A stretch of 58,635 nucleotides of DNA, the filler included, from Jimgerdemannia flammicorona (Eukaryota): the NCBI GenBank assembly GCA_003990765.1. It is 3 parts of 3 records of this genome, joined end to end, with 100 filler letters (N's around TTAATTAATTAA, not from the genome) between each part and the next. Parts side by side here need not be neighbours in the genome. Positions count along the whole stretch, not along the records: positions 1 to 19,484 come from RBNJ01001930.1; 2 more parts are not named here. One strand, written 5' to 3'. Below are positions 83 through 44,763 of the stretch, piece by piece; position 1 is the stretch's first letter; each line of letters starts with the position of its first letter. The notes below the pieces were generated by a model. It did not search any database, was not told where the DNA came from, and worked only from the letters and a program-made list of their open reading frames with translations. A program made the position numbers and the translations under genes.

Positions 83-1449
83 CCGCCGGGATTCTCGAAG
101 AATACGGAGATGGGCAGGCACATCCCATCGGCGTAGGAAACGACGGCCTACATGGGATAACATAACAATACGTTGTTGGTGGATACAACATTGGCTCCCA
201 ACGATTAGAACCCCACACCGCCACCACCACCCCACAGAGCGCGCGAAGACCACCCAACATTGCACGCACCTTGAATTCTTTCAGGTTAAACGTCAATTCT
301 ATGTCCCGTTGCACTAGGTAGGTCGCAAAGTCCGACACGTCGAGCGTGAGTTCCGTTTGGAGTGATCTCTTGTCCTCTATACGGCAAAATAAAGATAAAA
401 TAAAATAAATCAATCATCCAACATACTCGAACCCTAAAACATACTACTTCATTCCCTTTCACTCACCTCTTCTCCCTCCCTCGCCCTCCGCCCCTCCCTC
501 GTCCTCCCAGAAGCTCTTGATGTGCACGGCGCGCCCGCCACATGACAGGGTAACCTCCTCGAGCTTGGGATGGAAGTGGGCGGTCCAATCTGCGACGAGG
601 CGTGGATCGACGACCAGGCGGTGCGGGCAAACCTTGGTGTAGACAGCACTCAGTCGGTCGGCCGGGGAGTAGGTTAGCTTGTGTGTTTTGAGTATACCTA
701 GGGGAAGGGGGAGGTCGTTTCTCAAAACCATTTCAGATTGGATTTGCACATAACCAAACCAACACGCACCATATTTGCACACCATCCGGATGATCAGCCT
801 GCATTCGCCGGACCCATCGCCGACGACGATGCTCCCGCCGCCACGGCCCCCGTCGTTAGCGGGGTCCTCGAGCCTCAGCTCGCACCGCTCCACGTTGCGG
901 TCCAGATTGCTCTTGCTGCGGAAGATGGTGGTCAGGGTCTGGTAAGAGGGCGTGAATGTGGTGTACTGTCAACTCGGCACAGAGATCTTCAGTGCTTGCG
1001 ATGCGACTAGTCGCACGCTCGGCATACGATAGTCTTCGCCCTCTTCCCCTCCTCCCCTCCTCCCCTCCTCCTCCTCCCTCCCGTAACGTGGTGTCCACTC
1101 ACCTTTAACAACACCTGACAGATTAACGCCTTGTCCGCGCCGTTTGCAACACCACCGGCGTTGGCATTCTGCCTTGTCTCAACACGATACTCGCCGAAGA
1201 ACTTGGGGAAGAAGCTATAGGTTGCGAACGCCGACCGCGACGAGTTGAGAGTCGAGAGGACCAGCTATAGTTTGGAGTGTATGTGCCTGTGAGCAGTCGA
1301 ACACGAAGAAAGAAATAGTCAGGACAGGGAAACTGGGGAAGGACCTTCTTCTTAGTGGCTTCGATGGTGAGGTCGTCGCCGATCTTGGAGAGGCAGGCGA
1401 GGGCCCTCGAGAAAGTCTTGAGGGACTGGCCAGGTATGACAGCGTTCAT
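83..1449 (-). CDS. rad9: Rad9 subunit of the 9-1-1 DNA-damage checkpoint clamp, 5' part; exons 1449-1345, 1264-1103, 938-770, 697-467, 376-270, 147-83; continues off the left edge
   Basis: Spliced translation with GT-AG introns in consistent phase: MNAVIPGQSLKTFSRALACLSKIGDDLTIEATKKK|LVLSTLNSSRSAFATYSFFPKFFGEY...CQVLLK|TLTTIFR...VERCELRL...ECRLIIRMVCKYG|ILKTHKLTY...HFHPKLEEVTL...|LQTELTLDVSDFATY...LTFNLKEFK|AVVSYADGMCLPISVFFENPG. These are recognisable Rad9-family motifs. Confidence 0.93.
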
Positions 1450-5560: not shown

Positions 5561-6126
5561 CTTGGGTATGTTCTGATTTCGAGGTTTGCTTTCCGATCCT
5601 TCCCGAGGAACGGGGAAAAAAAGTAGAGTAGAAAAGATCCGAATATTGGAGCATGTTTAACCACCTCCTATGTCGCGTTGTGCGGAATAGCGACTATGAT
5701 TCGACTCAGACAGCCTCGCGTAAAGGCCAAAAAATGTTCCTGTCAAATCGTGTTCACTGGGTGCGTTTATCTTTTTTTTCGAAGCTTTAGCTTGAAACGA
5801 TACACCCCTTGAATGAGTTAAACTAAATACTAAAATATCACGAATTCAGCATGGCATTGTGCAAATTGCTCATTTGGATCTGAGGTGTATAGTTACACCA
5901 GATCGAGATGTTACGCCTCGGGCATACGCAAAAGACATTTGCTATAGGGTATCAGTATCTGATCGTTCTCGGTTGCAATTCGAGCTGTGATCACCAATGC
6001 CTCTCTAATATAAATTCCGGGTTCGATGGGTGTTATGGATTTTCACCAAAACTTGGAAAGAAAGCGGTTATTGCACCGACTATACTCTTGCCTTGGTCTC
6101 CTTCTTCTGTACCCGTATCAACCACG

Positions 6127-6602
6127 ATGTCATTCGAAATCGACAACACTGACCAATTGCCTGACGTCGTTATGCCCAATCTTTTAGGGGATGTACGTAA
6201 CATTTTATCAACTTTTCCGTACTTCCTTTCTCACTCCCAATTTAAGGAGAATCCTCACTTTGGAACCTCTGATTTCCATAACAGCAGCAAGAAATACAGA
6301 CGAGCGTCCAGACACCGTTCATCCGCCGTATTAGCATCACACCCACAAATCAAGAACAGCTAATTGGTACCCTGACAGCTCACTTGAACTCTGAGCTTGC
6401 CACCCTTCGAGATTTTTTGCAGTCCGATGAATGGGCAACTATAGAGAGTGCGATTGATTCGGCTGGCATGGATGCCTTTGAAGACGAACTTCGAAGACAG
6501 CCGGCAGATGTGGCTGTGTGCATTGTGGCTGGACCCGACGGAGTTACGGTGCTCTTAGTCATCGCTTTCATTGCTGTTTGCCTCCATATCATTCGTCACT
6601 GA
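6127..6602 (+). CDS. Small two-exon orphan gene, family I copy A, 127 aa; exons 6127-6192 and 6285-6602
   Basis: TATAAA at 6009; 92-nt phase-0 intron GTACGT...AACAG; exon 2 is in frame with ORF 6384-6602. The C-terminal domain is homologous to those of the genes at 9482 and 17011. Confidence 0.75.
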
Positions 6603-8529
6603 GGCTCGCCCGAATTAGATTGGAAACTTCTCTAGATTTTACCCATTCCAAACCTATTCATAGAATTTAAGAGACTTCGCTAATGCACTTCCTTATTTCA
6701 CTTTTCTGGATTATGCCATCCCCCTTTATGCCCATTATTGCTAGCTTCCATGATTTCATTTATACTCCACCCATGTGTATAGATCTTAGACAATTTGTCC
6801 ATTAATAAACAATCCACCTTTTATATGCACGGACAACAAGACCTTTAACAAACTTATATAATGACTATAAGTGGCCGCGGACCGTAAAGCCGAAGATTGG
6901 GCGTGGATTTTCGCCAACGAAGCTCCTGTTCGAGCAAAGCCATTTTGCTGCAAAAACGTAGCAACAGAGCATTCACCATTTTTGGCTTGTATCATTGGCG
7001 ACGGATCGGCTCACAGAGTACGCCCACATATATATCCAGGCAGAACCGCGTGTAAAATAATAGACCACGGTTTAAACATTCGGCGTTAGCGGTGGCGACG
7101 TGTGACAGGGACGATAGGAAGTATATACAAGAGACGTGCGGGGTAATCGTGCCACAGACAATTTATTTCACCCAACCATATTCTCCTCCAAACTGTTGAA
7201 ATTCTTTGTTAGGTTAGGAAACAAGAAGCGCATCAAGGAAGAAAACATACAGATAGAAGGGAAACCGTGCAAAGCCGACTTTGGCGATGGATTCGATTAT
7301 GGCACGAGCAGCCTGTGCTACATGTTGGTCGATTTGAATGCCAGTATTTGGTGGGGATGCAGGACAGGATCTGTATGATCCATATGTGACCAGCTGACAC
7401 AATGACACATTGGTTAGGGAGGTGTTTGTGATCCTCAACGACCCTAGAACACCAATGCCAAGAGTTGCTTAAATAAAAGATCGAACAAAAACCAATTTTT
7501 TATTTTTTATTTTAATAATAATAAAATACACCGAACCACGATAAGCGAAGGGGTGGGGATGGGAATCAATGAATGCTTAGAACAATCGCCTGTAAAGCTT
7601 CTCACGACAGTACGAGAGCTAAACATGGCACAAGCCGTCGGTTGGTGTCAATAGAAAGACCGATCCTTTGACGAGAACGAAATCCCATTATGAAAGCCGG
7701 GCATTAGCTAATCACACCAGGTCTTAAAAAAGCAATTCTTATCGCTTAGTTGATCTGATCGAATATCTCACATCAGCCGTAGACACGATATTTAGACTTC
7801 ACCGACTACCTCGCTGTCTTCACATCAACGCATCCCCTATTTCTAACGGAAGTTCTGCCGCAACTGCTGATTTACTATACAATTAGCAACAGGCATTTTT
7901 CTTGACATTTCTCGATTATATATATATATATATATAATGAGGTTATGCAATGGGGAATTTCCCGAGTTGTGGGATGACTCATCCTAGCTATGATCGCATG
8001 GCTACATCAAATCATAATGCCAATAGGAATTCGCAACACGAAATTCACTTAGCGATATTGGAGTATTAGAAGTCCGTGTCTTTTGATTGGCTTGGTGGCA
8101 TGTATGTGTAAGCAAGGGCAATTCGTATATTATTGGTGAGCAAATTGTGCGCTCCAAGATCACATAAATCGCTTTTGCTCATTCGCCGATCACGATTACA
8201 ACGCCGTCTAATTCTCGCGGCATACAATGGCTTCGTTTTCAAAATCAACACGAGGATCAGCATATTCGTCGGTCCGAAAATAGCCGTATCGCCACAGTCA
8301 GTGGCACGGATGGTGATCCCCATGTTCTGACGGTCCTTGTCCCGATCACGTTGGTTCTGGCCGGTGCTTGTTCTAGACCGATTGGTTCTCTGCAGTTCTA
8401 CCACTGAAGCGTGGTGTGCTGGAAAGGGGCAGCTGATCAAAGAAAATCTGCAACTCTCAGGCGAGCGATGTAGCACAGACTGAACAGCAATCTTGTATTG
8501 CTGAGCCTGCAGAATGTCAAATGAGGATA

Positions 8530-8940
8530 TAAGTTGCTAAAATAAATAACACAAGCACATTAACTCAGATATAAAGTCTACTATATATGCTAGAACTTTG
8601 TGAGATTGATATAGTATGAGACATTTATTTATTAAATAATCTTTCAGACTGAATTACTTATATTAAACAGTGATATGAGGTAAAATATCATATAATAATA
8701 TTAATTTACCTTTACTTCAATAATGACAATATCTCTAATAAATTAAATGAATTAAATAAAAAAATCTGACTAAAAATTTAATTTAGTTAAATAATCTTAA
8801 ATTAAATTTGAAATAGAATAAGTTTTAATTTAAATTAACTTAAAATTAACTTAATAGTAAAAATTTAAATAAATAAATAAATAAATAAATATTAATAAAA
8901 TTAATTTTATTATTATCATTATTATTATTATATTCTATAC
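8530..8940. other. Very AT-rich, CpG-free island, probably a hypermutated small transposon relic
   Basis: Abrupt composition change inside otherwise CpG-containing DNA, with TAAA and TTA microsatellites at the right end. Confidence 0.45.
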
Positions 8941-9481
8941 TCGACGAACAAATGATGATGTCACCAGTGGCTTGAACGTGTTGCACATAGGTCTGTATCA
9001 CTTAGCGAACCAATCATCAAAACAAGGCTTTTAATATCGGGTCACCAGCTCTCTTGGAGGCTTTTTAAACGGACAGGTCGAATATCGCAGATTTGTGGTG
9101 GGCTCAATATCAAATATTTGCACTAACTCCGTCGAGTCGTTTGCATGTTTGTGAGCATAGCCCGAAATTTCAATAAGAGATAAGGGCGCCTCGGTATATC
9201 ACGCCAGGCCTCCGACTGCCCAGGCAGCATAGGAAACAACCTCACGATTTCCGGGCACGTGCTCCGACCATGTGGAGATCCAAGAACCGAGAACTCAGGA
9301 TGATTGGTCATGAGGGTCCACAACGACACGTTCGTTCTCGGAAACCTGAAATATGCCACCAATGAGCCCGTTGCCAGGTACTTTTTTTTTTTTCATGATG
9401 TTAGATCCTCAAGTGTAGGCTTTGGGGCGCCTGGCATAAAACCCCACCTCATCTCACAAACACCATTTAGCTTTTACGGAA

Positions 9482-10070
9482 ATGCTTTACACGGAGACGA
9501 CTACGCAACAGGTGAGGATCCGTCCCCTTTTTCCATTTTATTTTATTTTCCACCACGACAAATGTTCTGAACCTTGCCCATTATATTCGCTTTGCATCAT
9601 AGCAACTCACCACCAGCTCAACCAATCCTCTTGACCATAAGAATCCGTTGATGTCTTCCCCGACCCCTCATGACTCTCCGGAACTTCCTCGAGTGGCCAC
9701 GCAACTCCCGTCGAACAACGACAAACTATCGCGCGCCTTGCAGCCGGGTTCAAATAGCGCACACACCGAGCACCCCCAAAGGAACGAAGCTTGGGCGGTT
9801 GATAGCGCCGCCGCTCGCTGGGATCACGACTTCGCGGCCCTTTGTGAATATTTTTGGTCCGACGAATTTGCTGCCTTCTTGGACAGCATTGACGAACCCA
9901 GCAACATGGTTGACTTCGACGCAGAGATTCGAAACATCTCCAGTCAGCCTGCAAATTCCGTTATAAACCAGACGCCGGTCAGCGTCCACGTCATTACTGG
10001 TGCCCGTGAGGCTGTAGTCAACCTCATCTTTCCTTTCATCGTCGTTACGATCTACATTCGTCGTGCTTGA
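9482..10070 (+). CDS. Small two-exon orphan gene, family I copy B, 165 aa; exons 9482-9511 and 9603-10070
   Basis: CATAAAA at 9435; MLYTETTTQQ, then a 91-nt phase-0 intron GTGAGG...CATAG; exon 2 is in frame with ORF 9648-10070; shared C-terminal domain. Confidence 0.78.
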
Positions 10071-11449
10071 CTTCCACTCAAGGTCAGACCGGAAGACAAC
10101 GTTTATACCCGTTTGATATATCAAGTTTGGGAAGCCTAGGAATCCATTCGCACTATTATCGCCGTAGGTTGTGATATAGGTTTAAAATTAGATTGTTTAT
10201 ATTTATGGTTTATTCTGAATTTCCAAGTAAATTTCGGGACAATTGTAAAAATAAAATCTTTATGCATGCATTATGCTTGGGGGGACAGTATGAGCCCCCC
10301 TACAAAGTTATAAAGTTTACCATGCAACTTAAAGCGGGGAAATTTTAGGACGCTGCCACTAGTAATCGGGCCACCGACATCGTCATGAGCACCACGTGAG
10401 CGGGCACATTTACTTTAATTATATATTTGGAATTAATAGCCCAAATAGCGAGAGGGCTAAGAGCCAAGGAGCGGGCGATTGAAACTCAGATACCGGATTT
10501 CCTTTGTCACAAATTGCGGGGCCCCGCACCCGCCGACGTTCCGATCATGATTACGCTTTAGATCCATAGAGCTTATCTGCTAAACATACAAACAACACAC
10601 AGGCCGCCCTATGCCATTTCGGCCTATGCCATTTACAATCCGGAATTGGAGAAATCGGGACCGTAGAACTTCACTTTGGAACACGCGCTTCCGTTGAGCG
10701 GATTCCAGAAAAATCGGTTTTCGGGCGAGAACCATAGAACTTGACATTGGAACATACGCTTCTACTGAGCTCGACCGCAAATTAGATTCATGGTAAGGGC
10801 TGGCTCTTGGATAATGTGCGAAGTCGGACGGGAACGGATATGTAACCCACTTACAGGTTCGTGCTATTGATACTAGTCGTACTGTTAGGTAAAGTTTAAA
10901 CCGTTTTCACGTGGCCTAAACTCAGAGAGGCTCATAACTGTGAATCCTTAATGCACATCGCCCATCTAGTTTTTACAATTCTCACGTGGACCTTGGTAGG
11001 TATGATAAACTATTGGAATTGCTCTCAAGGTTGGCAAAACCTTATGGGTTTTTACGTACGCAAGAATATAACCCTTAGAGTCTCAGAATTTTGGTGACGT
11101 ATTGGAAATGGAGGTTTAATGATGTGGCTTGAGATGATTTTGCTAGTGGCGTCGTGTGATAATAGTTACAGAATACAGTTTTCATTTCGTAACGGGAGGA
11201 AAGGTGGCTAGAAGGGTCGTTTGGCAGGTAAAGTTCCAGAGATCAAAGGAATACTATGTTGCTGGCGAACAATACACGCCCGATAACGCCGTGTGTTCAT
11301 ACCATTTCGGAAGTCTATCTCGCGAATTAGCGACGTTTGTGTGACAACGGAGGCTTGGTCGCATTGTCAGCCAAATTAAAGTCACCCCTTGAAAAAACGC
11401 CTCTTGGACACCCTTCACGGAATCACAGCAGGAAAAGGTGAGCGAGAAT

Positions 11450-11960
11450 AGCAACCAAACCTCACACGCTGATCGCAGATACCAACAAAAGACTTACATC
11501 CCTTCCTCCTTAGATATAAACCTTTCACACTATCACACTATGTCTACGGAGCCACAGGACGAGGTAAGGTAGCAGTAGCAACCAAACGTCACACACACTG
11601 ATCGCAGCTACCAACAAATGACTTACTTGCATTCTGAACCTTCTCGCTTAACAGCAAGTGCCGAGAACCGTTTCGACCCAAGATAGTCCACACCTGGACC
11701 CCTCGGCCGGAATCCTACATGACCAAACCACCGTCGGAATCGGGCACGTCCAACAAATAACAGTAATGGACCTCGACATTACGGCCATCATGACGTTGGA
11801 GATCGAGGGAGATGTTGACATGGCGAGCGTGCAGGCTTGGAACCCAATAGTCAAGGGTAACCTAAGAAAGAAGATGACGAAAGGCGGATGAGGGATACCA
11901 TAGCGAGCGTGCAGGCTTGGATCCCGATCGTCAAGGGTAACCTATGAAAGATGACGAGAA
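11450..11960. repeat. Two short imperfect direct duplications (~50 bp at 11450 and 11577; ~63 bp at 11819 and 11899)
   Basis: agcaaccaaac.tcacac..ctgatcgcag.taccaacaaa.gacttac occurs twice; cat.gcgagcgtgcaggcttgga.ccc.at.gtcaagggtaaccta occurs twice. Confidence 0.85.
11540..11891 (+). CDS. Predicted small two-exon orphan gene (type II-b), 86 aa; exons 11540-11563 and 11655-11891
   Basis: TATAAA at 11515; MSTEPQDE, then a 91-nt phase-0 intron GTAAGG...AACAG; exon 2 starts with CAA in frame with ORF 11658-11891 (VGIGHVQQITVMDLD). Confidence 0.55.
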
Positions 11961-13479
11961 AGTGGGAGTGGTTCATAGCTATATTATTATTACCTTGTAC
12001 AATATGCCAGATCCGCTTTTCTTGCCAATGACTCACGCCAGAAATTATCGCACTCTATGATTTATATGTCGTATCAATACCAATATTTCAAAAAGCTAAC
12101 AGTTACCTATATGACGTCATATTGTATGATGTGACGTATGTGTGACGTCCTATGCATCGGGTTCATGTCAGTTGTCCAGCGCGCAAAACGGAGCGGCAAT
12201 AGTTTACATCGGTACCGCAACCCTCTTTATACCTTTGCCTTCGATAGCTCTTTTTGACAATGACTGGAATGATTGATAATGATTGATTTTGTGTTCACAT
12301 GTAAATTTTTTCTCACGGAAAATTGGGGTGTCACGAGGGTTTGTCAGCGACTAAAGTCACGTCCAAGTCCACCGAACAAGAGCTCTCTAGAAAAATGGTG
12401 CGTTCCTACAATCTAATGTGATGGTAGTTGTCGCAAACTACGTGCAAAATGACACTGGACGTCGTTCTTACATAAAATAAAATAAAATAACGCGGTGATG
12501 TTTGAACATACTCATTTGAAAAAGGATGGGCGATACGGGAGATCGGATATTTGCGGGCTCCCACGTTTCTAAATAGAACTATAATATAATCATATCACCA
12601 AGCAACATGGGAATGTGTATTTGCAGCCATCGATACCATGTGAATCAGTCCCTGCTGAAACACGTTACGCCTCACCCCTTTGTCCCATCGCCTTTCGCCG
12701 AGCATTAACTACAACTTTTGGCTTCGTTGACACCCTTGCTTTCAACGACCTTTCCTTGCATTGTCGGAGGTATTTTGCATTGTCAGAGAACCAAGTTCCT
12801 AAAATAAACGCTTTGCACAACAGGGATATATTAAGGAATAAACAAGTGTCAAGGAGTAAACAATTGGAATTAGTCGGCTCCGACCTGGGAGGCTCGATTT
12901 TGAAGTTGAATCGCTTCCGAACTGCAATGACTTGTTTCCCCCTGACTTATCGCAATGAAATACAAACGAAAACGCGAGACAACGAGTCATTCCGGTATCA
13001 CGCCTCGAACCAATGGCTCTGCGACATTATTTAATTAGCCGCCAAAAAAAAAAGACGAAACGTCATAAGTCATGCTGTTGGCCATTATTGTGTTTCTGTT
13101 CGTATCACAGACAGATGTGTAATCATCGTGGGGTGTTGGGAAGTGAACACAAAAGAATACAAATCTATTTTTTTCTCTCGGAATGTGACGTTATCACTTT
13201 CGGTGGTGAACCTAACAACCTCTGGATAAATCAGTCACTACGCCATGGCACGCTACACCTCCTCATCCACCTATCTCTGAAACACCGGTAGTGTATCAAT
13301 CTTGACCCCGTGTTCCTCATGTAGACCGCAGATTTAGAAAATGCGGCGTACGGCAAAAAGTTGGAAGGGTTGTGAAGGATGTGACTCATCCGCGACGTAA
13401 ACGCGCACCAGCGTCACCAGATCACGTAAAATCTCCTCGTGATAGCAGACTCTACTCTGGTTAGGTTATGATAAAGATA

Positions 13480-15013
13480 ATTATCTTCCGAAAGCAAAAA
13501 TGCTGTATTTGTTTATCTCGATGCTCTGCCGAATCTTATCCAAACTCCGCAGACTCGTTCATTTCTCTCCTTAACCGCCTGAAGTATTGCAAAGAGTGCT
13601 TTGAATGGGATGGGGCTTTGCATACGCTACTGGCCTTTTTCGACATAGGAACTTAAAGTCCGTCCTACCATCAAGCAGACTTTGAGGCCCAGAACTCGAA
13701 GTCTGTAGATATATATCAGTATCACTCTAGCACTGACCGAGTCCCAACGCGATACCGAGTCCCAACGCGATACGCATACTGCCTTCGACATCCAGGTTGC
13801 AGGTTTTTTTTTTTTTTTTTTTTTTTTGACAGAAGTAACGTGCACAGCATCCACCCAGAAAATAGTCAGAGCGAACAACCAGCAACATTGAATGTAAGGA
13901 ACTAAATCTTGAGTAACAAGCCACGAGGGGTTTGGCCATGACTATTCATAGTATACGATTAGGCTGGTTTCTTTTCCTTTGTTCCTCCGACGCCTTCCAA
14001 TTTTTTCTTCCCATTTCTGCTTGTTTTCGCGATGTCGTATGCGCGTAGGAATTGAATCGCGTATATACGTTTGTTTTGGTCTCTTGTGTTGGTATTATTA
14101 GAAAATGGGACAATTTACCCCCGTCAAAAAAGCGCTTCCTAAACAAGCTAGTTCGGCCGCGGCATCGAACTAGGCGGTATCTTGTGCCCCCAGCATGGAA
14201 ATAATAACTGTGAGAAATGACTCTGACCCGGTGCTTGCCACATGGCAATGGCTTGGCAACAAATATAGTAAATATAGTCCGTATTACAAGAGGCAAAAAG
14301 AAAGATAGAAAAGAGAAAATACACAGAGGTCGTAATTGAAGGAAGATTAGCGGGCGCAAATCATGCGCGGTTGGTGAGAGGTCACTTGTCAATTCCCATG
14401 CAGACACAGAACCGGAAATCCGGTCAGTGAAAGGATCACCCCAAAGCCACAGAATACGCATGATGACCCCACCAACGGCGGGCATGCTTATTCTGGAGGA
14501 TCCAATATCGTGATGGACTTTTTCGGTTGCGGGTTTCGCTCAGGGGCCTTCAGCCTCATGGCATACGTTGCAGATCCAATTGCGCAGTTTGGTCGTGCAC
14601 GCGGTATAGGCGCATATGATATTGGGATCGCCCTCCCCTCCTTGCAGATCAACCACGAGGAGCTTGCTTGATTGACTAATTGGCTAATTGGAACGGGTTG
14701 ACGTGACAAATTTATGGTGTTATATAATGTAGTCCGCACGCCATAAATTTGGGTTTACTATGTTGGCCGTAGATTGCAAGGTTATAGAATCCCGCCAGAA
14801 AATGGTTGCACAGAATTCAATCTCCGCAATCACCTTAGAACAGTCAAATCTGCGTGAGCAATTCCCCAGACAAGTATTTGATGCCAATGTATTGGCATTG
14901 ACAAAAAGAAACATAAATGTACGTTTCACATGGTCACCAGCCAACAATGGAATACGGGACGAATGCGGTCGCAACTCTTCCAGCCCATTTTGCATCGCCG
15001 CGGGTCGTTGCAT
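13480..15013 (-). pseudogene. Probable degenerate F-box/LRR (RNI-like) gene
   Basis: Consecutive broken minus-strand ORFs: SRIPLLAGDHVKRTFMFLF (F-box-like start), VNPNLWR/TTLYNTINL across a frameshift, MRILWLWGDPFTD and LRVLGLKV (LRR-like). Recognition is by pattern only. Confidence 0.35.
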
Positions 15014-17010
15014 GTTTAAATAACCACTGCTCTCTCGTAAGGGTAGCGTTCTCTGGTATGTTAGAGTTTGATTAGTTTGATTAGGTATTCATGCATTATG
15101 TATGCCACAGACAGTACCTGCAGGATTCGCTGACAGTCATGTACTAAAATTGCGTAACTTTAATGATGCCACACAGTTGATCCCTTCCTCAATTCGAAGG
15201 ATATGACTATCAACAATCCGGGGTTGAGCATACTAAGCCACGTAAGGCAGTTACAAGCTTTATTTTTGATCCCTTATTAGAAAATCTGGCAGTCCAGCGT
15301 AGCGAGCGTCCTCGCATTTGGGGCGCAATTTCGGGTGAATATTTGACATTTGACATTTGATATGCAAGCACGAATGAGACACAGAACGCTCAATGGGGCA
15401 CTATCACAGAATGACTTCGTTTCCCGCCGTTCGGGCGGCTGCGCAACGTACTTCTGTACCCGGAACATTACAATCGAGACCGCCGATATGAGCTTGACAC
15501 GCCGTTTGCATGGCGGCAGAATCAACACATGTGTAGCTCCTCATTTCGATACATCGGATAGAAGCATATATGACGAGTGGCCGAGCTGCCTGCCTAACAA
15601 CTGATATGGAAAAACGTGTGCCTCCCTGACAATCACGCATTATACCTAATCGCGGCCAAGTCAAATCGACCTGGAACCCTTTATCTCGGAGTACACGCGG
15701 AGACCGGTAGGTAATTGCGCTCGAGCGGACAAATTGTGTCACCTAGTCTTCTGCTTCCTATAACCCCGACGTAACGCGTGGAGCCTGACAATAGAAACCC
15801 ATACCAATCAGAAACAACGTGCGCAGTTTTTTTTTTTTTTTTTTTTTTTTTTTTGGCACCTTTGGGCTTCGCACACCAGGTACTCAATAAAAGGGGGAGG
15901 GGGCGATTTTTTTTTCTCCACCACACACGCTGCTCGAGCAATGACCAAATAAGTCGACAAATGATCGAGCTTCCATTTTTGATAATCCGAAAGTGCAGCT
16001 CTATTGGGATGGAATGCACAAAAGGAGAAGTGCACAGGGATGGGGTTTACACCCATTTTAAAGTACAACGCTGGTACTAGCAAAAATAACGTTTTGGTTG
16101 GTAAAAAAAAAAGAACAGCAAGCCACAGCGTGCATTTTAAATAAGTATCTAATTTTGTCATAGAAATGTACCGATTGATTTCCGCCTTCAGCACTGCAAC
16201 ACGCTGGTGCACACACTCAGTTTTTTGAGCTTGAACCGGTGACTGCGGCTTCAAAGGTTTTGTTCAACTCCGCAGAATAGCTTTTCAATGGCATGTGCAT
16301 GTGATATCATTTCTTTATTTTATTTTATTTTTGTGTGAATTTACATTAGGTTTTTATTTTTTGATATTGATATTTATACATGCATATATATAAAGAGTTC
16401 TGTTGGAATACTACGATAGTTTTCACGTGATCGTCTCTCGATCGGCGTGGGTGATCGTCAGGTGCCCGGATGCGCTGTGGAACATCATGGGCGTAGTCTA
16501 TCGCAACGTTTTGTGTAACAACGGAGGTGACACACCCTAGGTCTTGACCTATGCACGCCGTCATTTCGGGCCATTTGTAGCAGATGCCACTGTTCCATAT
16601 CTCGCATCTCTATACTTGACCCGCAATTGCACGGGTATTTTAACCTCAAAAAAATGATTGTTTACGGTCACACGGGGGGGTGGGGGGGGGGGACGGCGAC
16701 AAGAAACCGGGCAACTTTATGTGCATTCAATTGGCACGCGTGACTTCGCGATCCAGAAAGTTGCTGTTGCGAAGCGAACAGGGCGTAGTGGCCAACGTTT
16801 TGGTGCTACGAAGCATACCAAGCCTCCCATTTCACGGGTGAAGTTTCCAAAATGCATCGCACGGCTTTTTGTAGGTTAGTCGGAATTTTTATTTTACGAG
16901 CATCTATATAAAAAGCAGGGCAGTTCGCTTCAATCCCATTTTTTTTAACTATTGTATAGAACGCATATTGCAATAGAACTCTCTCGCTCATTAATTATTC
17001 TTGGTTATCA

Positions 17011-17393
17011 ATGGTACAAGTGAGCATCATTTTTTTTTTATTTTTTTTTTTAAGAAATGTTTGGCCTATTCCACTGGATGGTCGTACTGACACCAGGTTT
17101 TGTTTTAGAAAAACGGCAGCGACGAGGCGACATACCTTAGCATCGAAGAGATGCTTACCGCGCGCCGGGACAACGACTTCGGGGTTGTTCGAAATTATGT
17201 GCTGTCCGAGCAATTTTCGACATTGGCGGGGGATGTTGATCCTGACAGCATGCGCCTCTTTGAAGCCGAGCTTGCCCTCGACCTTCAGAGGCAGGCAATC
17301 AATAACGCTGCCGAGAGAATGGTGGGCGTGCGCATCCTCATGGTGCCCGGGCGGATTGTAGTGGTGTTAGTATTTGCTTTCCCCGTCGTTTAG
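17011..17393 (+). CDS. Small two-exon orphan gene, family I copy C, 97 aa; exons 17011-17019 and 17109-17393; homology continues past the stop to 17414
   Basis: TATATAAA at 16905; MVQ, then an 89-nt phase-0 intron GTGAGC...TTTTAG; exon 2 is in frame with ORF 17151-17393; shared C-terminal domain. Confidence 0.75.
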
Positions 17394-17788
17394 ATCTACA
17401 TTGGGCGCGATTAGACTTGCCCATCAGACTTCGTTTTCGGCAAGAGCCGAGTTGTCGTTCTTAATAACATCAATAACTATATGAATTTGTTTTACTATGT
17501 ATATACCCCTATGCTCTATGAATAAAAAATTTCCGCTTCATGGCCTCGGCTCTCGTGTTATGTGATTCATAAAAACTACTCGCGAGACAGCGTTGAACTG
17601 CACAGCCCGATCATGTAACCGAAAATTGTTGGGGTACGGGAAATCAGGTGTGGTAACCAGGACGAAAGCAAAGTCAAGAAGGACAAGGAGTAGGCGCTAG
17701 TGTGGGAGAGACGAGGAGGACGAGAAATGTTGCCGCGATCGTCTCTAATTGCGGAAGCGAGGATGAAACAGAGCCCGGGGGGGGGGGA

Positions 17789-19829: not shown

Positions 19830-20570
19830 ATAACAGAGTTGAGCTCATGAATTAACTAGATCTTATCTATAGAATACTGAGGTGAGGATGTCTGGAGTCC
19901 TCTGGAGACAATTTGGTACTTATGGACTGATCATTGGAGTCTACTGAGTTGTGGGAGGTTTGGGGGAAATGAGGAGAGATATTGTCATTAGTTCTTAAAT
20001 GCCTTATTGCTGAGAGTATACTCAATGTGAAATATATAGGTAGTGGACATAAGTTTAAGAATTCTTAGCTAGAGGACAAGGGGGCCAGAGATTGGAGACT
20101 AATGGCAGTATTTCAAATCAGATACTCAAAGGTTCTAAGAGAAGATAGAAAAGGTGAGAGATAATAAGAGACAAAATCAATTAAGATAGGTCTCTCAGAA
20201 ATTGGAGAAGCTGCTGAGGACCTAGACTGATTTACTGGATGATAGAGAGGAGGGGGATTAGAGAGTTCAGTGGATCCAGCTCAAGGTGAAGGAGCTGAAA
20301 AGGATGCTAAGGTAGGAGGAAGATCTATAGTTAAAGAGTATGACAGTTTAGTTGAGGTGATAGGATATAGAAAAGAGGGAGTGATCTATGAAGTTTCTGT
20401 TGAGACTTCTTCAGGTGAAGAGAGTGAGATAAAATTAGGAGAGAATATTAGATAAGATAGAAGAGATGGTGGTTAGAACCTCAGAGATCTTGAACTAGTT
20501 GAGCTTGAGGTAGAAGCATTTGTGAAGTGAGGAGAAAGGTAGAGAAGATATCCTAAACATTAAATGGCAT
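19830..20570. mobile_element. Unclassified, heavily mutated CpG-free repeat relic
   Basis: CpG-free, rich in stop codons, lying between two LINE pieces; no domain recognised. Confidence 0.35.
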
Positions 20571-22988
20571 CTAGAGAATTGATATCCAGATCCAGTAGAG
20601 GGTGTTGGAGACCTTGAAGTACCTGTCTAAGATGGGGAGATAAGTAGGATTTTGACAACAACTAGTCTTAGAATAGCTCCTGAGGCAGATGATTTATTTT
20701 GGAATTTCTAAAAAAGATGGCAGATATAGAATTGGCTTTGGAGGAGGTGGCATAGATCTGTAATAGAGTTATTAGATCAGGAGAGTAAATTGAGAGACAG
20801 TAACTAGGACCAGTAGCTCTGTTATATAAGTACAAAAGATGAGAGGAGTGGAAGAACTGGAGCTGTTTATGTTTTTGTATATAGATTATAAGCTGATTAT
20901 AAAGATATTTGTGGCTAGGCTACAAGAGATGACTTAGCAAATACTAGGAGCTGAACAGAGGGACTTTGTTGGAGGTTACTTGATAAGAGATAAGATAGCC
21001 TAAGTGTATAGAGTTATTGAAGGAGTACAAACTACAGAGGTCAATGATTGACTGATTTTTCTGGACCAGAAGAAGGTATATAATAGAGTCTAGTAAGTAT
21101 AGCTGGCAGAAGTACTGAAGTATATAGGAGTTCTTCCAGAGTTCAGACAATCATTGGTCAGGCTATTGGAGAGCAGTTGGATAGTAATATTGATAAATGG
21201 ATATAGGGGGATTTCATTTCTCCTGGGCAGAGAAGTATTACTTTATACTCTCTCTCTGGAGCCTCTGTTGGACAGAATCAGATATAAGGTGGGGGGGTTA
21301 AACATTCTAAAAGTAAATTGGAAGGTGGGAGTCTTTACTGATAATATAGTAGTTGGGCCAGACTCTATAGAAGACATGGCTACACTGAAGGAGGCCATAG
21401 AATGATATGAGGAGTACTCTAGTACTAAGCTAAACTGGCACAAGTGTGAGGCCCTGGTGTTAAAAGAAGGAATAGTAGCAGAAGATATGATTAGAGCAGT
21501 TGTTTTAGCAGGAGAGATAGTCCATTACCTGAGAATCAATTTCTCAGTATATGGATCACTGCTGTCTCAAGAATGGTAGAAGCAATAGTTAGTTGAGTGG
21601 AGAAATACTCTTTTGGGATGAGGTGGCTGATACATCTCTCTAGCTAGAAGTGAGATAGTGCTGAATATTTACTAGCTGTCCAAGTTTTGGTATCTGGAGT
21701 ACAACTTGAATTTCCTGGTATTAGTGGTTAAGAGGCTGTTGAAGATGGCCAAGTTCTAGATATGGATAGGATGGAGGAATCAGATTGGCTGGGAGGTGAT
21801 AACATTCTCAGTAGACTAGGGGGGACTAAATCTGATAGACTTTACTAAGCATCTATATTGCTTGAGAGTATGGTGGTTGAAGTAAGATAATAAGTTAAGG
21901 GGCTATAAGTGGATATACCTTATATAGAGAGTATAGGAGGTATAGTTCTCTCCCTATAGTATATCTGGTGATTTGATTTCCCTAGTAACACTGGAGGGGA
22001 GCTAGAAGATATACTTTAAGTGATTCTGATAGAGAGTATTTGATGGCATATATTGAATTGATATCAGATAGCAGAACAATGAAAGAGAGATTGACTAGGG
22101 ATACAGAATGTAGAGGTGGGACTGTCTTCTATTAGAGAGTATACCAGTAGATGACTTCAGCTTAGAGGATAGTATGGAGTATCTTTAGGAGTAAGAGTAA
22201 GATCTGTAGTCTGAAGTATAGCAAGAAGTGGGAATCAGTAAGAAGTGAGACTGAAATGGGGTTTGATCATAGAGCAAGTAAGTGGTACAGTAGATCTCCC
22301 CTAAGTTCTGGGTAGTATCATGGAGGCTTTTGTGGTAAAATATGGTATTGAACTATCTATCAGAACATTTGGTAGATATGTAGAAAAGTATTGGAGTATA
22401 AGGAATATCTAAATATTGAATAGGAGGGTGGGATAGTATAGACTTCTGAGTATTAGTTGGAGGAGTGTGAGGTGATGAGAGACTTTTTGAGGGTAATTAA
22501 GAGTCTTTTGAAGATCTATATACCAGGGCATATAATGAGGAGAGATGGGGTAATCTTAAGAGAAGGCTGGTGGAAGGGGTTGGTAATGAGTGGTTAATTA
22601 TTAAGTAGGCACTAGCTATTTGAGCTGAGCTTACTAGTTATTGGCTATATATATTTAAGGATAGACAGAAGTTGGTACTTAGATTATAAGTTATAAGGTA
22701 GAAGTAGCTGATGTTGGACCTATTGAATGGCTGGTAGAAGTGGTGGGGATCTGGAGAGAGGCCCTATAGAAGGTTGGTAGAGAAAATTTGCAGACAGAGT
22801 GGAGGAAGGATTAGATAGCTGAGGGAATAGTGGCTTTCCAGAGAGATAGAGAGAGAGAGAGAGGAGGAGGGAGGGAAGCCCCTTGTGGAATTAGATGAGA
22901 GGTGGGTTTGTATTAGTATAACATAGATTAGATGGTAATAAAGTAGAGGTTTGAGTAACTATAAAAAAAAAAAAAAAAAAAAAAAAAA
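20570..22988 (+). mobile_element. 5'-truncated, heavily mutated L1/Tx1-like LINE (RT to poly-A)
   Basis: FLDQKKVYNRV, LYTLSLEPLLDRIR, VGVFTDNIVVG (degenerate FADD), LNIY*LSKFWY; AATAAA followed by a poly-A tail ending at 22988. The left boundary is approximate. Confidence 0.88.
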
Positions 22989-23550
22989 GTCTTAGTATTG
23001 AAGATTTAGTATAACAGCTTATCAATCCTAGATAAGGCATATCAGTTCTTGATAGTAATATTGTTGAGAGCCCTATAGTTAATATATATTTGCAGAGAGC
23101 TATTCTTCTTTTTAATAAATAAAATAGAAGCTCTAAATAGAGAACTAATAAATTTAATATATCTTTAGATCAATAGTTTAGTCAACTTATTCTTAAAGAT
23201 CTTGAGTTTAGGTTAAGTCAGCTGGTAGATACTCTTATATAGAGGTTCATATTCTGGGATAAGATCAATTCTATATTAGATTTGATACTTGGGTGAAAGT
23301 TCTTTAAATTCCTAAAATATCTCTTAGAATTCCTCAAATAGTTTTTATATTTCTGATAGTACTGAGTTGCTCAGGGCCTCTGAAATATTTTGTATAGTAT
23401 AAATGAAGTATGTGTTCACCTTTTTGCAGAAGAGTCTCTTCATCTAAATGATAGAGATGATCTTGATTCCTTGTTAGTTATTACTCTTTTAGAGTATCAG
23501 AGTGATCTTTCTGTCTTTATAAGTCTGATTAATCTCATTGATTGAGTCAA
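22989..23550 (-). mobile_element. Ty3/Gypsy reverse-transcriptase fragment, heavily mutated
   Basis: Minus-strand SSLFRASILFIKKKNSSLQIYINYRALNNITIKN*YALSRIDKLL is a mutated form of [40 protein letters not shown]. Confidence 0.85.
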
Positions 23551-24397
23551 ATATGATTATGCAATCTACCAAATAGATATTAAGACAGCCTTTTTGAATA
23601 GCAATATAGATACAGAGCTATATTTTTATCAAACATAAGAAATAAACTATAAATAATAGAAATGAGCTTATATGTAAATTATATAAATATCTTTATGATA
23701 TCAAATAAGCAGTAAGACAGAGAAACTGAAAAATAAACAAATATCTCTTAGACAATAGATTTAAGTATTATGAGATCAATTTATATATATATATACATCC
23801 ATATACATCCTCAGGAATAGTATACCTAAGAAATTAGAAGATAATATTATTCTAGTTAGAATGATAATTGAGATTAATAATATGAAGATAATACTATGCT
23901 AAGAATTCAAGATGACAAATATTGGTAATATATTCCATCTTCTTGGAATATCAATTATATGTGACAAATATGAATGTGCTATATATCTATCACAAGTTAA
24001 TATATTTGGACTCAACTCAAATATTTTGATATAAGTAAATGCAAATCTGTTAGAACATCTATAGAGACATCTGTAAGGCTAAGGAAGACTGATACTTTAT
24101 CTGAAGATAATGACATCCCCTATCAGTAAGTTATTGGATCTTGCATTTATCTCAGAGATCTGATATATTATATATAGTCAACAAAGTGACATAGTAGTTA
24201 TCTTACTATGACAATTCACATTGGATATAATCAAGTGTATTTTTAGATATATTAAAGATATAGCTCATTATATACTCAACTTAGAAGATAGCAATGATAA
24301 GAGATAAAGCAGAAGCAGTATGATAAGATTATCTAGTATATATGATATAAACTGGGCCAGAGAGCTCAACAATTAGTGCTCTATAATTGGGTACTTC
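23551..24397 (+). mobile_element. Ty1/Copia relic, RT part (left half, split by a LINE)
   Basis: QIDIKTAFLNSNIDTELYFYQ, CKLYKYLYDIK*A, EFKMTNIG, PYQ*VIGS, and NWARELNN (from DWAGD.DD) just before the LINE insertion. Confidence 0.85.
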
Positions 24398-27300
24398 TTT
24401 TTTTTTTTTTATAGTCACTTGGACTCTGCCTTTATTACCAGTCTATGAATAAATATACATCATTCCTACCCACTATCCAATCCCCACAGAGGGGCCCCTC
24501 CCTACTTCCTCACAAATGAAAATCACCCTTTCACCAACTACCCCAACTCTCCCCCCACTTTGCCCACAGATTTTCTCCACCAAGTGGCGCCTCTGACCAC
24601 CCTGCATCCCCCAACCCAGCCACCAGCCTGTTAAGGTGTCTTCCATAAGCCTATGCCATCACAGCAGCTGGTCTCTCAAGCTCTGTCTCCTCCCATCCTC
24701 AAAAACAAATAGTCAATAACTGGCCAGCCCCACCCAAATAGCCAAAGCCCAACCCAAAGTAAGCCACTCCTTCTCTATCCCCCCTACCAATCTATCCCTC
24801 AAGTCCTCCCACCACCCCCATACTTCATCACCCCTACCCCATATCCCGAAGCGATTCCCAATTATCTGCCACAAATCCCCCAACACCTCACACTCTCCTA
24901 GCCAATGTTCTGGTGTCTGTATGTAACCCCCCTCCTGCCCTACATTATGGCACTCCTCACAGTTGAAGCAACCCCCTACAACAAGGTGCTCTGAGTGAAA
25001 GTTGAGCATAACATTCCTCTGCAGCATATGCCACCAGACCACCCAGTACTTTGGTGGCAGCCACATTCTCACTGCAGCACTCCAGGTCCAAACACTATGC
25101 CAGTTCTACTCTTCGCCAATTCCAACTCCTTGCCAACCGCTAGGCCACAGATCCTGGCCTGGTCCCCTTTGGCATTCCATTCCATCACCAATGTCGAACT
25201 CAACTAAAGGAGCGCCACCCAGCAGTATACAATCCCATCTCCACATTGCCAGGTCCCAATCCTCCTTGCCTTCATTCCCCTACCAACGAATACCAATGCA
25301 GTGCACTCCTTCTGCAATCCCCCACCAAAATCCTTTATATCGCAGTTGGGCAGTATTCTGAAGCCCAACCAAGGAGAGGAGATCACCAGTTGAGCCCCTT
25401 GGCGATGCCCGCCTCTCCCATATCTTCTGTAACAGAGAAACCCATCCACCTCCTCTCAACTCTACCACCCTCTTCAGCCACCATGCTCTCAAGCAGTGTA
25501 ACCATTTTGGGAAGTCAACCAGCCCAAGACCGCCTCTTACCACTGGTAGAGACAAGGTCTCCCAACTAATCTGACTATGCCTGCCAGCCCAAATCCATCT
25601 CTTCACCGACTTCATCAATCGCTTCACTACCCAGGCTGGGAAGTCCAGATGATATGCCAGGTACCACAACTTTGGCAGCCAGTAGACATTCAAAATCGAG
25701 ACCTGCCCTGCCAGAGAAAAATGTCTTCCCCCCCAACTCCGCAGAGCCTCCTCCCAGATTCCAATCCTCTGCTCCTACCAAAGCCTGGGCAGAACTGACC
25801 CATAGACTGACAAGTAGATACCTAAGTACTGCACTACTTCACCAGTGGGGATGATTGTTCCTATAACTTCCCCTCCCGCCAGGCCATTACCGAGCACCAT
25901 CATCACACTTATGCCAATTCAGCTTAGCTCCAGAGTACTCCTCATACCACTCCACAGACCTCTTGAGCTCCTCAACATCAGCAATCGAACCCAAACCCAC
26001 CACCATATCGTCAGCAAAGGCCCCAACCTTCCATCCTATGCCAAAGACAGAGAGCCCCACTATCCTCTGCCGAATTCAGTCCATAAGTGGTTCTAGAGAA
26101 AGAGCATACAAAATGGGGGACAATGGATCCCCCTGGGGCACCCCCCTACCCAAGGGGAATGCTACCCCTCTATGTCCATTATATGTGAGTACAGCCCTAC
26201 TCTCTTCCAGTATGCTGACCATTGTTGACTGGAATTGATACGGAACCCCATTCTATCCAAAACTTTCTCCAGCCAGACTCTTCACCCCTGGTCATATGCC
26301 TTCTCCTGGTCCAAGAAGACTAGATGCCCATCCAGTCCACAGGCCCTAACCCCTTCGATAATGCTATGCACCCAGGCAGTGCCATCCCTGATGAGCTGAC
26401 CACCCACAAATCCCCTCTGCTCAACACCCATGACTTGCTGGGCCACCTTCAGTAGTCTTGCCACCACCACCTTAGTTACCAACTTTCTGTCCATATCTAG
26501 CAACATTATTGGCTGCCAGTTCTTCCAATCCTCTTGCCTTCCTTTGTTTTTATAAAGCAGTGTCACCAGCCCAAGGTCCTGCTCCCCCACCCACCTCCCT
26601 GTTTGTAGAATAAGGTCACACATTGCTGTCATCTCTCCTATCATCCCTGGAACTCCAACCATTTGCTTCCAAAAGTCCCAGGGCAGACCATCCTCCCCAG
26701 GTGCCGTACCTGGCATTGTCATGGCAAGAACCTGGTGGATCTCATCCACCTGTACAGGCATCATCAGGTCCCCTAGCCCTTCGACTTATAGTGGGTGCCA
26801 ATCCTCCAATGTTTGTTCAATTGTAGTGGCATCCACCCCACCCTCCTCCTCACTCCACAATCCACTCCATCTCTCCTTCAGCGATCCAAGAATGTCCTGT
26901 ACACCATGCACCAGTACACCATCAGAGTCCAACCCCCTTCCCACCATTGGTGGACCTGCCTCATCCTAAGGGCCCTTGTAAGAAGCTTGGAAGGCCTCTC
27001 CCCTTCCTCCAGATCCTGCCAGCAAAGATGTGCTGCCAAGCTCTGTACCCTTGCCTCTTCCTCCTCCCACAGCACCTGTTAAAGTTCCCCAACCTCTATT
27101 TTCGCCCTCATTAATCTCCAATCTTCTTCTCCCTCCAACATCATCAGCCTTGCCCACTCCTCCAGAAGCCTCGTCAATCTGGCAGAGGCCCAATGCACTC
27201 TTTGTTTTTGCTGCTTCCCTGCCTCCTTACCAGCCTCCCTCCAGTAAATCCTGGCCATTTCCTTCATCCTCATCCACCGAGTCCCAACTGAGGCCCCTTC

Positions 27301-39819: not shown

Positions 39820-40473
39820 TCAATAAGTCTCGTATGCAGTTATGAACTGTTGTAAGTTCATTGGCAAGGTTGGCAGAGTGATCAGGGTTGGCAGAGATCC
39901 TTGGCTAGAGATCATGTTGGCGTCAGAGGGGTCATTGTCTTCTGCTTCATCTTCGTCGAAGTTGATTATATCATAGACGTCCTTCATGGTGTATCCGACT
40001 TGAGGCATTTGCAGAATATGGTCATCAGAGTGCGGGAAGGTTCTGTCTGTGGTTTTGACATACTCGAGGTACTTGTAGTTGAGTTCTTGTATCATGTCAT
40101 CGATTTGGCCATAGGACAGGGTAGCAACCATTTCACTGGTAGTGACTCGGAGGCAGGGAATAAAGGTGTTGTACTCATAGAAGAGTTCTCGATGTTTACG
40201 GGCGATGAGCTTCTGGTGTTGAGACATCTGAGTAATATCTGTATCATGGTGGTGTTCGACCATATCTTCTAGGAGGTGGCCAATCTGGTAGTAGCTTGAG
40301 ATTTGTCCAATTCGGTGGGCCTCACTAAGTATGTTCAGGGCGTTCCATCGGACTTCTATGAAGTAGAGGGGTGCCAGGCTATGGATATTCATGAGGGGCA
40401 GAGGGGGTGTGGCTCGGTTGACAATGGTGTTCCAAATGTCAGCGTGGATGCGGTTGTAGATCTCAGTGGTCAT
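39820..40473 (-). CDS. Intact intronless 217-aa ORF of unknown function, probably a retroelement accessory ORF
   Basis: Long open frame from ATG 40473 (YYQIGHLLE...ARKHRELFYEY..., acidic tail). It lies next to TE DNA and upstream of an LTR-like TATAAATACCCCC near 39185 on the same strand. Confidence 0.55.
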   Translation of the reverse strand: MTTEIYNRIHADIWNTIVNRATPPLPLMNIHSLAPLYFIEVRWNALNILSEAHRIGQISSYYQIGHLLEDMVEHHHDTDITQMSQHQKLIARKHRELFYEYNTFIPCLRVTTSEMVATLSYGQIDDMIQELNYKYLEYVKTTDRTFPHSDDHILQMPQVGYTMKDVYDIINFDEDEAEDNDPSDANMISSQGSLPTLITLPTLPMNLQQFITAYETY

Positions 40474-43400: not shown

Positions 43401-44763
43401 TATAAGGAGGAGATCTAGAGAGTCTTTGTAGCAACTAAGCTTAGAATGGTACCAGAAGAGGATGATCTATCTTGGGACTTTTAGAAGAAGATGATGAAAG
43501 TCCTGGGAGTATTAGGAGAGATGGCTGCCCTCTGTGACATTGTTCTTCTGAATGACCAGTGGGTGAGAGGGCAGGACCTAGAGCTGGTGGCCCTGTTGTA
43601 CAAAGATAAGGGAGGAGGGAGGATTGGAAGAACTGGAGACTAATTATACTTCTGGATATAGACAGAAAGTTGGTTATGAAGATAATTGTAGTAAGATTAT
43701 AGAAGGTTGTCTAACAGATGCTGGGTGAGGAGTAATGGAGTTTTGTTAGAGGTAGACTTATTAGAGATAGGATGACTTAGGTCTATGGTATATATCATTG
43801 AAGGGGTATAGGCTAGTGGATTGGATGGGAGGCTGGTTTTTTTGGACCAAAAGAAGGTCTATAACCATGTCTGGCAGGTGTGGTTGGGTAAGGTGCTAGA
43901 CAGAATTGGAGTTCCTCTACTATTTCAAGTTTCTATGTTGAATCTGTTGGAGGGCAGTAGAGTGGTGCTGATGTATAATAGTCACCAAGGTCTGGTATTT
44001 CTCTTGGAGAGAGGAGTGCCTCAGGGGAATCCACTGTCTCCTATTCTATATGCCCTTTCATTAGAAACTTTGATAGATAGGATTCAGCAGAAGGTGGTAG
44101 GGCTCTCTATTTATAGTATAGTATAGAAGGTAGGGGCCTTTGTAGATGATATAGTGGTTGGACTTAGATCAGTGGCAGATGTTGAGGCTCTTAAGAAGAT
44201 GGTAGAATGGTATGAGGCATACTCTGGAGCAAAACTCAACTGGTATAAGTATGAGACAATAGTATTGGGAAATGGATTAGTAGAAGGATATGTCATTGGA
44301 ACAATTGTCTTTATAAAAGAGGTAGTAAGATATCTGGATATCTTTCTATCTATGTATGGATCTGTCTTGCCATAAGTGTGGTGGGAGAGGAGAGTGGCTA
44401 TCTGGAGAGAGGCTCTTAGAGGCTAGAAAGGTCACCATATCTCCCTAACAGGCTGGATGTTGATTCTGAATGTCTACTGGTTCCCTAAGCTATGGTATAT
44501 GACCTATTACTTGGACTTTCCTACTTAGGTGGTGAAGAGACTATTGAAACTGGCTAGGGATTATATTTGGGCTGGGAGGCAGTCCCAGATCAGTTGGGAT
44601 ACCCTTATAATACTAGTAGCTCAAGGGGGGCTTGGACTGGTAGATTTTTCTAAGAGGCTGTACTGCCTGAGAGCTTGGTAATTGAAGTGAGCTGTGGAAC
44701 TGAGAGGAGGAGGATGGGTGCTGCTGATGCAGAAGGTGTGGGAGATGAGATTTTCCCCAAGAG

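Follow-up and report, generated by a model that had tools for sequence, protein, structure and literature searches.

A putative Endogonales family of small proteins, with three predicted paralogues in Jimgerdemannia flammicorona that end in a hydrophobic tail

Introduction

Two groups of proteins resemble the products of the genes reported here. In the fungal order Endogonales, a family of small proteins can be delimited by a helix-loop-helix of ~37 residues with the pattern Y/F-x-x-S-x-E-F/W together with M-x-x-F-D/E. Tail-anchored proteins, on the other side, have a single hydrophobic segment, ~16-22 residues long, which lies no more than ~30 residues from the C-terminus. Both descriptions apply to the predicted products of three small genes, here called A, B and C, on the plus strand of a 58,635-nucleotide stretch of the Jimgerdemannia flammicorona genome (assembly GCA_003990765.1). 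This stretch, composed of three parts of three records joined end to end with filler, is hereafter referred to as the window.

Among the fungi that associate with plants, the Endogonales rank as one of the most ancient lineages. A review describes their genomes as large, rich in repeats and sparsely annotated, and gives that of J. flammicorona as ~240 Mb with >77% repeats (PMC10386755). In such a genome multi-copy small genes can lie unannotated among retroelements. Lineage-restricted families are common in repeat-rich fungal genomes, and the family of A, B and C is one of many, so far without a link to symbiosis or phenotype.

In this study, we compare the three copies with each other, with protein collections and with structural models. 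To judge from sequence comparison, A, B and C are true paralogues, which go back to ancient duplications of a single small gene for a protein. Their helical half recurs in other Endogonales proteins. Tentatively, we propose that the domain they share forms a compact alpha+beta unit, and we weigh this proposal against a membrane anchor, against gene relics and against assembling beta structures.

Results

The first-pass annotation of this DNA had proposed three paralogous small genes, and the translations it quoted for A, B and C are present on the plus strand of the window as claimed. Their paralogy was confirmed by BLASTP, tblastn and Smith-Waterman alignment. BLASTP linked A with B (E 6e-9) and B with C (E 3e-11) and gave no match of A with C. 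When the whole window was searched with tblastn, all six ordered pairs were recovered (E 1.1e-5 to 1.7e-8), the next-best match having an E-value of at least 0.71. Smith-Waterman scores of the three pairs corresponded to z = 12.0, 13.9 and 16.7 relative to 1000 composition-preserving shuffles, none of which reached the observed score (0/1000 for each pair); the shuffled control that had been proposed for the pairwise scores thus places all three pairs far above chance. The helical half by itself yielded z 6.9-9.3 (0/1000 shuffles) and the 30-residue tail by itself z 5.4-6.8 (at most 1/1000). Since each half is significant separately, the similarity is more than common hydrophobicity. Among the 36 frame pairs of each comparison, the proposed plus-strand frame ranked top in 3/3 (scores 84, 86 and 98, any other at most 67). 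A fourth copy in the window was found neither by tblastn nor by a motif hidden Markov model (HMM) run over six frames (next best E 0.68).

The copies also agree in their gene plan. All junctions proposed for them are possible in the sequence and lie in phase 0, with introns of 92, 91 and 89 nt in A, B and C (Table 1). As a control, the 129 stop-to-stop frames of at least 90 amino acids in the window were screened for an upstream in-frame ATG, a GTGAG, GTAAG or GTACG donor and a phase-0 AG acceptor 50-150 nt further on at the frame start. This plan was present in 5/129 frames, three of which are A, B and C. With a background of 2/126 frames, the common arrangement of a short first exon and a phase-0 intron of 89-92 nt, as described earlier, is borne out. 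Similar signals mark the homology-mapped introns of the neighbouring Rad9 gene, one of which runs GTGAGT...TATAG over ~90 nt; donors of the GTGAG and GTAC types occur there, as in A, B and C. By eye, A, B and C are each preceded by a TATA-like string, at ~6006, 9436 and 16903, and the gene-plan scan revealed a second possible ATG for gene A at 6172. By inspection, the peptides encoded by exon 1 and by the beginning of exon 2 are polar or acidic in all three genes, in agreement with the proposed lack of a signal peptide; the N-terminal part of exon 2 of B is polar and rich in S, T, P and Q.

At the DNA level, the copies can be aligned in the domain-coding part only (z 9.7 for B-C, 2.8 for A-B and 3.0 for A-C). 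Similarity is at chance in the N-terminal coding parts, in the introns and in the 300 nt upstream and 300 nt downstream, with one marginal exception among nine flank comparisons (upstream of B and C, z 2.0, 14/300 shuffles). A domain that remains alignable while flanks and introns are at chance argues for old duplicates with constraint on the domain, and not for recent repeat copies. Identity between the copies is highest at second codon positions (0.59-0.62) and amounts to 0.44-0.49 at third positions. Ratios of nonsynonymous to synonymous divergence (dN/dS, Nei-Gojobori) are 0.42 for A-B, 0.48 for A-C and 0.67 for B-C; with dS of 1.1-1.5, near saturation, these values are crude. The selection on the protein that the first-pass annotation had suggested is thus supported by codon positions, by dN/dS of 0.42-0.67 and by DNA similarity confined to the domain, the signal being modest and dS near saturation. 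In comparisons among A, B and C, transitions are about as numerous as transversions. As a cause of divergence, repeat-induced point mutation (RIP) was rejected on account of this equality and because the organism is not an ascomycete.

Copy C differs from the other two by a premature in-frame TAG, which costs the last six codons and hereby the end of the last predicted strand. Across this TAG, 40 nt of B and C are 78% identical (10029-10068 versus 17373-17412), and 4/6 of the residues encoded past it match B. By this alignment the second TAG of C would mark the ancestral stop position of the A/B/C family. The highest dN/dS involves copy C, namely in the B-C comparison. Copy C retains its start and its splice signals, and apart from the TAG its frame is undamaged. 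Copy C is probably decaying, and a recently disabled copy is the simplest view; alternatively, a sequencing error or a tolerated truncation may account for the TAG.

Searches of family and structure databases support the earlier statement that A, B and C belong to no recognised family, as no Pfam, PDB-sequence or fold match was obtained for them. Pfam-A at gathering score had no match for A, B or C; P0001 gave two matches below threshold (E 0.21 and 0.23, 12 and 11.5 bits versus cut-offs of 27.9 and 25), P0002 and P0003 none. A sequence profile found no relative in PDB (best E 1.4). In a word-based protein search with B, none of 20 candidates scored. In a protein atlas, the domain of B reached a best score of 0.86, which is chance level, and P0012 (see below) had no usable match; the model stored there for P0012 is poor, with a predicted local distance difference test (pLDDT) of 0.43.

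Relatives emerged from an HMM search, a check that had been suggested for the C-terminal domains. Against 1,835,955,588 representative proteins, the profile of the A/B/C domain gave four matches at E <=0.001 and none at 1e-10. The sole short protein among the four is P0006, an unnamed, assembly-derived protein of 148 amino acids (E 9.4e-5). We set the other three aside: P0004 is a bacterial Calx-beta repeat protein whose E-value sums several weak repeat matches, and P0005 and P0007 are insect allergen-repeat proteins whose E-values (1.5e-6 and 2e-4) sum 4-5 weak repeat matches. A search with P0006 led to two relatives, the assembly-derived P0011 (133 amino acids) and P0012, which is the hypothetical protein BC937DRAFT_87532 of Endogone sp. 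FLAS-F59071. Over 37-38 columns, hhalign matched the A/B/C profile to P0011, P0012 and P0006 with probabilities of 94%, 87% and 85% (E 1e-7 to 7e-6). BLASTP of P0012 found A (E 2e-6) and B (E 1e-3) and nothing in C. An S, an M and an F are invariant in an alignment of all six sequences. That the sole short match among 1.84 billion proteins leads, by way of its relatives, to the same fungal order strongly supports true kinship. P0006 contains two tandem copies of a motif resembling the helical half, and the motif can thus act as a repeat unit; matches of the second copy to PPR were sub-threshold, spanned 14-16 residues and were taken as chance.

Metagenome scans with the A/B/C alignment and with the Endogone-type alignment gave 583 and 311 stretches with the respective pattern, none of which was confirmed. 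Two sequencing runs contained small shares of the sequence words of 5900-10300, namely 0.11 in a putative RNA run and 0.08 in a soil metagenome. In the titles and abstract openings covered, on Endogonales lineage-specific genes, gene families and effectors, the family is not mentioned; supplements of the Endogonaceae genome paper may list such families. Literature on Jimgerdemannia orphan genes or BC937DRAFT contained nothing relevant. As judged from these alignments, the helical half appears to define an Endogonales-wide family with one annotated member, restricted to this order as far as visible, and the hydrophobic tail seems so far peculiar to copies A, B and C. Of the novel, unclassified family suggested at first, the novelty stands insofar as there is neither a Pfam class nor a function assigned to the family or to any relative; the family is not confined to A, B and C, as the helical half recurs in P0006, P0011 and P0012.

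The fold of the domain was modelled with AlphaFold2 in two runs on one and the same alignment of three sequences. Both runs gave the topology H-H-H-E-E-E, i.e. three helices followed by three strands. With B as first sequence, pLDDT was 75.6 and the predicted template modelling score (pTM) 0.62, with helices at residues 2-20, 23-30 and 35-49 and strands at 63-68, 72-78 and 83-89; with A first, pLDDT was 69.4 and pTM 0.42. The tail was predicted as strands in 2/2 runs at a pLDDT of about 70-80, from the alignment of three sequences. Two acidic helices followed by a three-strand-like tail had been expected from the sequence; the order of helices and then three strands was recovered, with three helices instead of two and at moderate confidence. 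Comparison of the model with known structures, likewise part of the proposed checks, revealed no Foldseek relative in PDB at E <=0.001 (TM ~0.3). An exhaustive structural aligner gave a best Z of 6.0, under the reported background of 7-8 for models without relatives, and its top rows were unrelated small alpha+beta proteins.

Details of the aligned tails resemble strands. Conserved hydrophobic residues take turns with variable and frequently polar ones along the first and the last segment of the tail, as in V-x-V-x-I/V and in V, L/I, I and R interleaved with C/T, H/Y and I/R/G, which corresponds to a strand-like period of two. Gly- and Pro-rich residues occupy the first turn of the model, and prolines occur at shifting positions at the second turn in B and C. 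The tail of B includes H, R, E, N, T and Y.

Table 1. Predicted parts of genes A, B and C, with positions along the window
Feature	Position	Strand	Description	Basis
Gene A, coding exon 1	6127..6192	+	22 codons, acidic/polar, without hydrophobic signal	Translation and ATG-donor-acceptor model
Gene A, candidate intron	6193..6284	+	92 nt, GTACGT...ACAG, phase 0, AG at 6283-6284	Sequence and model
Gene A, exon 2 including stop	6285..6602	+	105 codons; helical motif ~6390-6497; hydrophobic tail 6510-6599	
Gene B, coding exon 1	9482..9511	+	10 codons, ATG at 9482	
Gene B, candidate intron	9512..9602	+	91 nt, GTGAGG...ATAG, phase 0, acceptor TAG 9600-9602	
Gene B, exon 2 including stop	9603..10070	+	155 codons; helical motif ~9831-9944; tail 9978-10067	
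Gene C, coding exon 1	17011..17019	+	3 codons, ATG at 17011	
Gene C, candidate intron	17020..17108	+	89 nt, GTGAGC...TTAG, phase 0, acceptor TAG 17106-17108; ACTGAC branch-like site	
Gene C, exon 2 to premature in-frame TAG (17391-17393)	17109..17393	+	94 codons; helical motif ~17178-17288; tail from 17322	
Gene C, past premature stop	17394..17414	+	Six codons and TAG (17412-17414); homologous to end of B	

A Rad9 checkpoint-clamp gene occupies 153-2189 on the minus strand, has at least five introns and is 88-100% identical per exon to a J. flammicorona NCBI protein. Its frame 462-968 (minus strand, Pfam) is 99% identical to two partial J. flammicorona Rad9 proteins and 55% to that of Endogone sp., which assigns the window to J. 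flammicorona or a species very near to it (Endogonales, Mucoromycota). At E <=0.001, Pfam recognised RVT_1 in three of the 129 frames and RVP_2, RT_RNaseH, rve and SH3_Tf2-1 in one each; beyond Rad9 and these retroelement domains, one weak capsid match was the sole other match. Outside Rad9, the window consists largely of retroelement debris, in keeping with the repeat content given for the species in PMC10386755.

Some of these elements can be outlined. A Ty3/gypsy-type element on the plus strand is apparently split into 46710-48683 (protease, reverse transcriptase and RNase H) and 54961-55863 (integrase and Tf2-type SH3). The gap holds a skewed LINE-like element whose frames resemble, by eye, frames of the opposite strand at 28.5-29.1 kb (for instance 49741-50856 versus 28577-29059), and the split looks like a nested insertion. 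Strong GC-skew blocks of +0.4 to +0.5 or -0.4 to -0.47 span 20000-30000, 40000-44000 and 48000-54000. They coincide with LINE-like reverse-transcriptase frames, the coding strand being G-rich and C-poor; the native composition of a LINE-like element family or a strand-specific mutation process could be the cause. Between B and C, at 11463-11957, DNA without other annotation contains two pairs of short direct repeats, one of 43 nt with 86% identity spaced 129 nt apart and one of 59 nt with 88% identity spaced 80 nt apart. Long poly-T runs were noted at 9380-9392, 13804-13827, 15827-15854 and 17033-17051, the last of them inside the candidate intron of gene C.

Discussion

Our preferred reading, to which we give a tentative preference, is that one small Endogonales gene was duplicated long ago, that its family is restricted to this order as far as visible, and that its descendants A, B and C encode a compact alpha+beta domain with a hydrophobic sheet face as its working surface. 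In each gene, a brief coding exon at the start would be followed by a single phase-0 intron of ~90 nt; the encoded protein would begin with a polar, variable part and end in a conserved domain of ~85 residues. This domain would fold as a compact two-layer unit: the beta-branched tail would form an antiparallel sheet of three strands, and three acidic, amphipathic helices would lie over one of its faces. The other, largely hydrophobic face of the sheet would serve, within the cytoplasm, for self-association or for binding to a partner or to the surface of a membrane. If one may guess from the model, the products are small cytoplasmic adaptor-like proteins and not enzymes.

Several observations weigh against this proposal. 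The alpha+beta fold, predicted at moderate confidence, rests on an alignment of three sequences with which both runs were made alike. The last 17 residues have mean Kyte-Doolittle values of 3.01, 2.08 and 2.74 in A, B and C, as in a membrane span, and 19-residue windows reach 1.75-2.49. For comparison, 1.6 is the usual Kyte-Doolittle rule of thumb for membrane spans. Hydrophobic-moment analysis of strand versus helix periodicity gave mixed results. When the tails of A, B and C were compared with the C-terminal parts of P0011 and P0012, z ranged from -1.4 to 1.9, with 59/1000 shuffles in the best case. Synonymous divergence is near saturation, and a second method put dN/dS of B-C at ~0.88 (dN 0.797, dS 0.909). 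The donor set of the gene-plan control was picked after the three donors of A, B and C were known. Furthermore, the protein collections that were searched include annotated J. flammicorona proteins and yet lack the products of A, B and C; the genes are thus not annotated or not assembled there. That they are spliced and expressed is a prediction from sequence.

The best placed of the alternatives, which we hold to be somewhat less likely, is that the three products are membrane proteins of the tail-anchored class. A single C-terminal helix with 16-18 hydrophobic residues, inserted post-translationally, would then fasten a small, acidic cytosolic head of three helices to the membrane of an organelle; two or three residues, a conserved arginine among them, would follow the helix. 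In line with such an anchor, the 17-residue hydropathy maximum lies at the extreme C-terminus of all three proteins and ends 2-3 residues short of the stop, no hydrophobic leader is seen in the polar or acidic exon 1 peptides and N-terminal parts, and the linker between helices and tail varies in length by 11 residues, as it would between two separate modules. A Tyr or His followed by Arg at the end would fit a membrane interface. Points against the anchor are the strands that AlphaFold2 placed in the tail in both runs, a proline in the middle of the segment of B and C at different positions, and Asn, Thr and Tyr inside the segment of B; moreover, the conserved V-x-V-x-I before the Gly/Pro turn would have no obvious role. 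As hydropathy favours the tail anchor, the sequence detail favours strands and the moment is mixed, we keep both readings and place the compact alpha+beta domain slightly ahead.

It is improbable that the three copies are non-functional relics, i.e. decayed and no longer expressed, whether derived from a dead gene or from a repeat-borne frame. The premature TAG in C, the absence of all three from protein collections that include annotated proteins of the species, the B-C dN/dS of 0.67-0.88 and a window that consists mostly of retroelements (Pfam, 129 frames) would agree with decay, as would the >77% repeats given for the species genome in a review (PMC10386755). Against it stand the intact frames of A and B and the retention of start, donor, acceptor and phase in all three copies versus 2/126 background frames. 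Flanks and introns have diverged to chance and the domain has not, the flanks contain no common repeat body, unlike those of mobile-element copies, and the annotation of another genus, Endogone, includes a related gene.

A bolder variant, to which we assign a small chance, makes the 30-residue V/I-rich tail a new C-terminal beta anchor: the meander would leave its helical cap and self-assemble or insert in a membrane as beta structure. If true, the Endogonales would gain a lineage-specific family of small self-assembling or membrane-perturbing proteins, with the tail fused to an older helical motif. A self-templating, amyloid-like or membrane-inserting beta module assembled between molecules from the three-strand tail is very improbable, since the tail's richness in beta-branched residues, its three short strand-like segments with Gly/Pro or aromatic turns between them and its hydrophobicity on both faces in A and C are met by the lack of a nearby partner gene with the same motif, of another copy of the tail in the window and of NACHT or NB-ARC among the 129 frames (Pfam, E <=0.001), and since the amyloid signalling motifs known from fungi are rich in G, N and Q and not aliphatic.

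The finding is of interest in several respects. The 37-residue motif is a marker of an order-restricted family. The three genes offer a testable case of a conserved helical module with an acquired, extremely hydrophobic, beta-branched tail. Membrane prediction based on hydropathy would have a useful counter-example if the tail turned out to be a sheet and not a helix in the membrane.

Comparison with known systems

Some described systems resemble the model in fold. Phage baseplate gp25/TssE-like proteins, minor pilins and Tctex-type dynein light chains have helices on a short antiparallel sheet, as in our model, and gave the best structural alignments (Z 4.5-6.0, rmsd 3-4 Å over 73-87 residues). 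With 3-10% identity and Z under the background of 7-8, the arrangement is alike and membership is not implied. The insect allergen related repeat (PF06757) is present in P0005 and P0007, which matched the A/B/C profile at positions 8-34 and whose repeats include a comparable helix, Y-[IL]-x-[SG]-x-E-[FW]-x-x-[LM]-V. About 26 residues align with A, B and C, for which there is no match to this Pfam family even at E 10, and the pattern is most likely due to chance or convergence. Fungal amyloid signalling motifs are paired, with one short motif at the end of a small protein and again at the beginning of an NLR encoded next to it; for A, B and C no neighbouring NLR with their motif was found within 58.6 kb.

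Tail-anchored proteins share several features with A, B and C: a single very hydrophobic segment at the extreme C-terminus with a short basic end, no N-terminal signal and a small cytosolic part, the latter two as predicted for A, B and C. In contrast to tail-anchored proteins, A, B and C have a segment for which two strands joined by a turn, and no helix, are predicted; in B and C this segment contains prolines and polar residues.

The closest systems are P0006, P0011 and P0012. Like A, B and C they carry an acidic helical motif of 37-38 residues, L..YF.S.EF..L....D...M..F[DE]..[VLI]RR, are small (133-148 amino acids) and come from the same fungal order. Unlike A, B and C, they have C-terminal parts without significant likeness to the hydrophobic tail, and P0006 bears the motif twice in tandem. 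Gene calling that took no account of splicing may have produced artefactual ends in the assembly-derived P0006 and P0011. It is the helical motif that A, B and C have in common with these Endogonales proteins.

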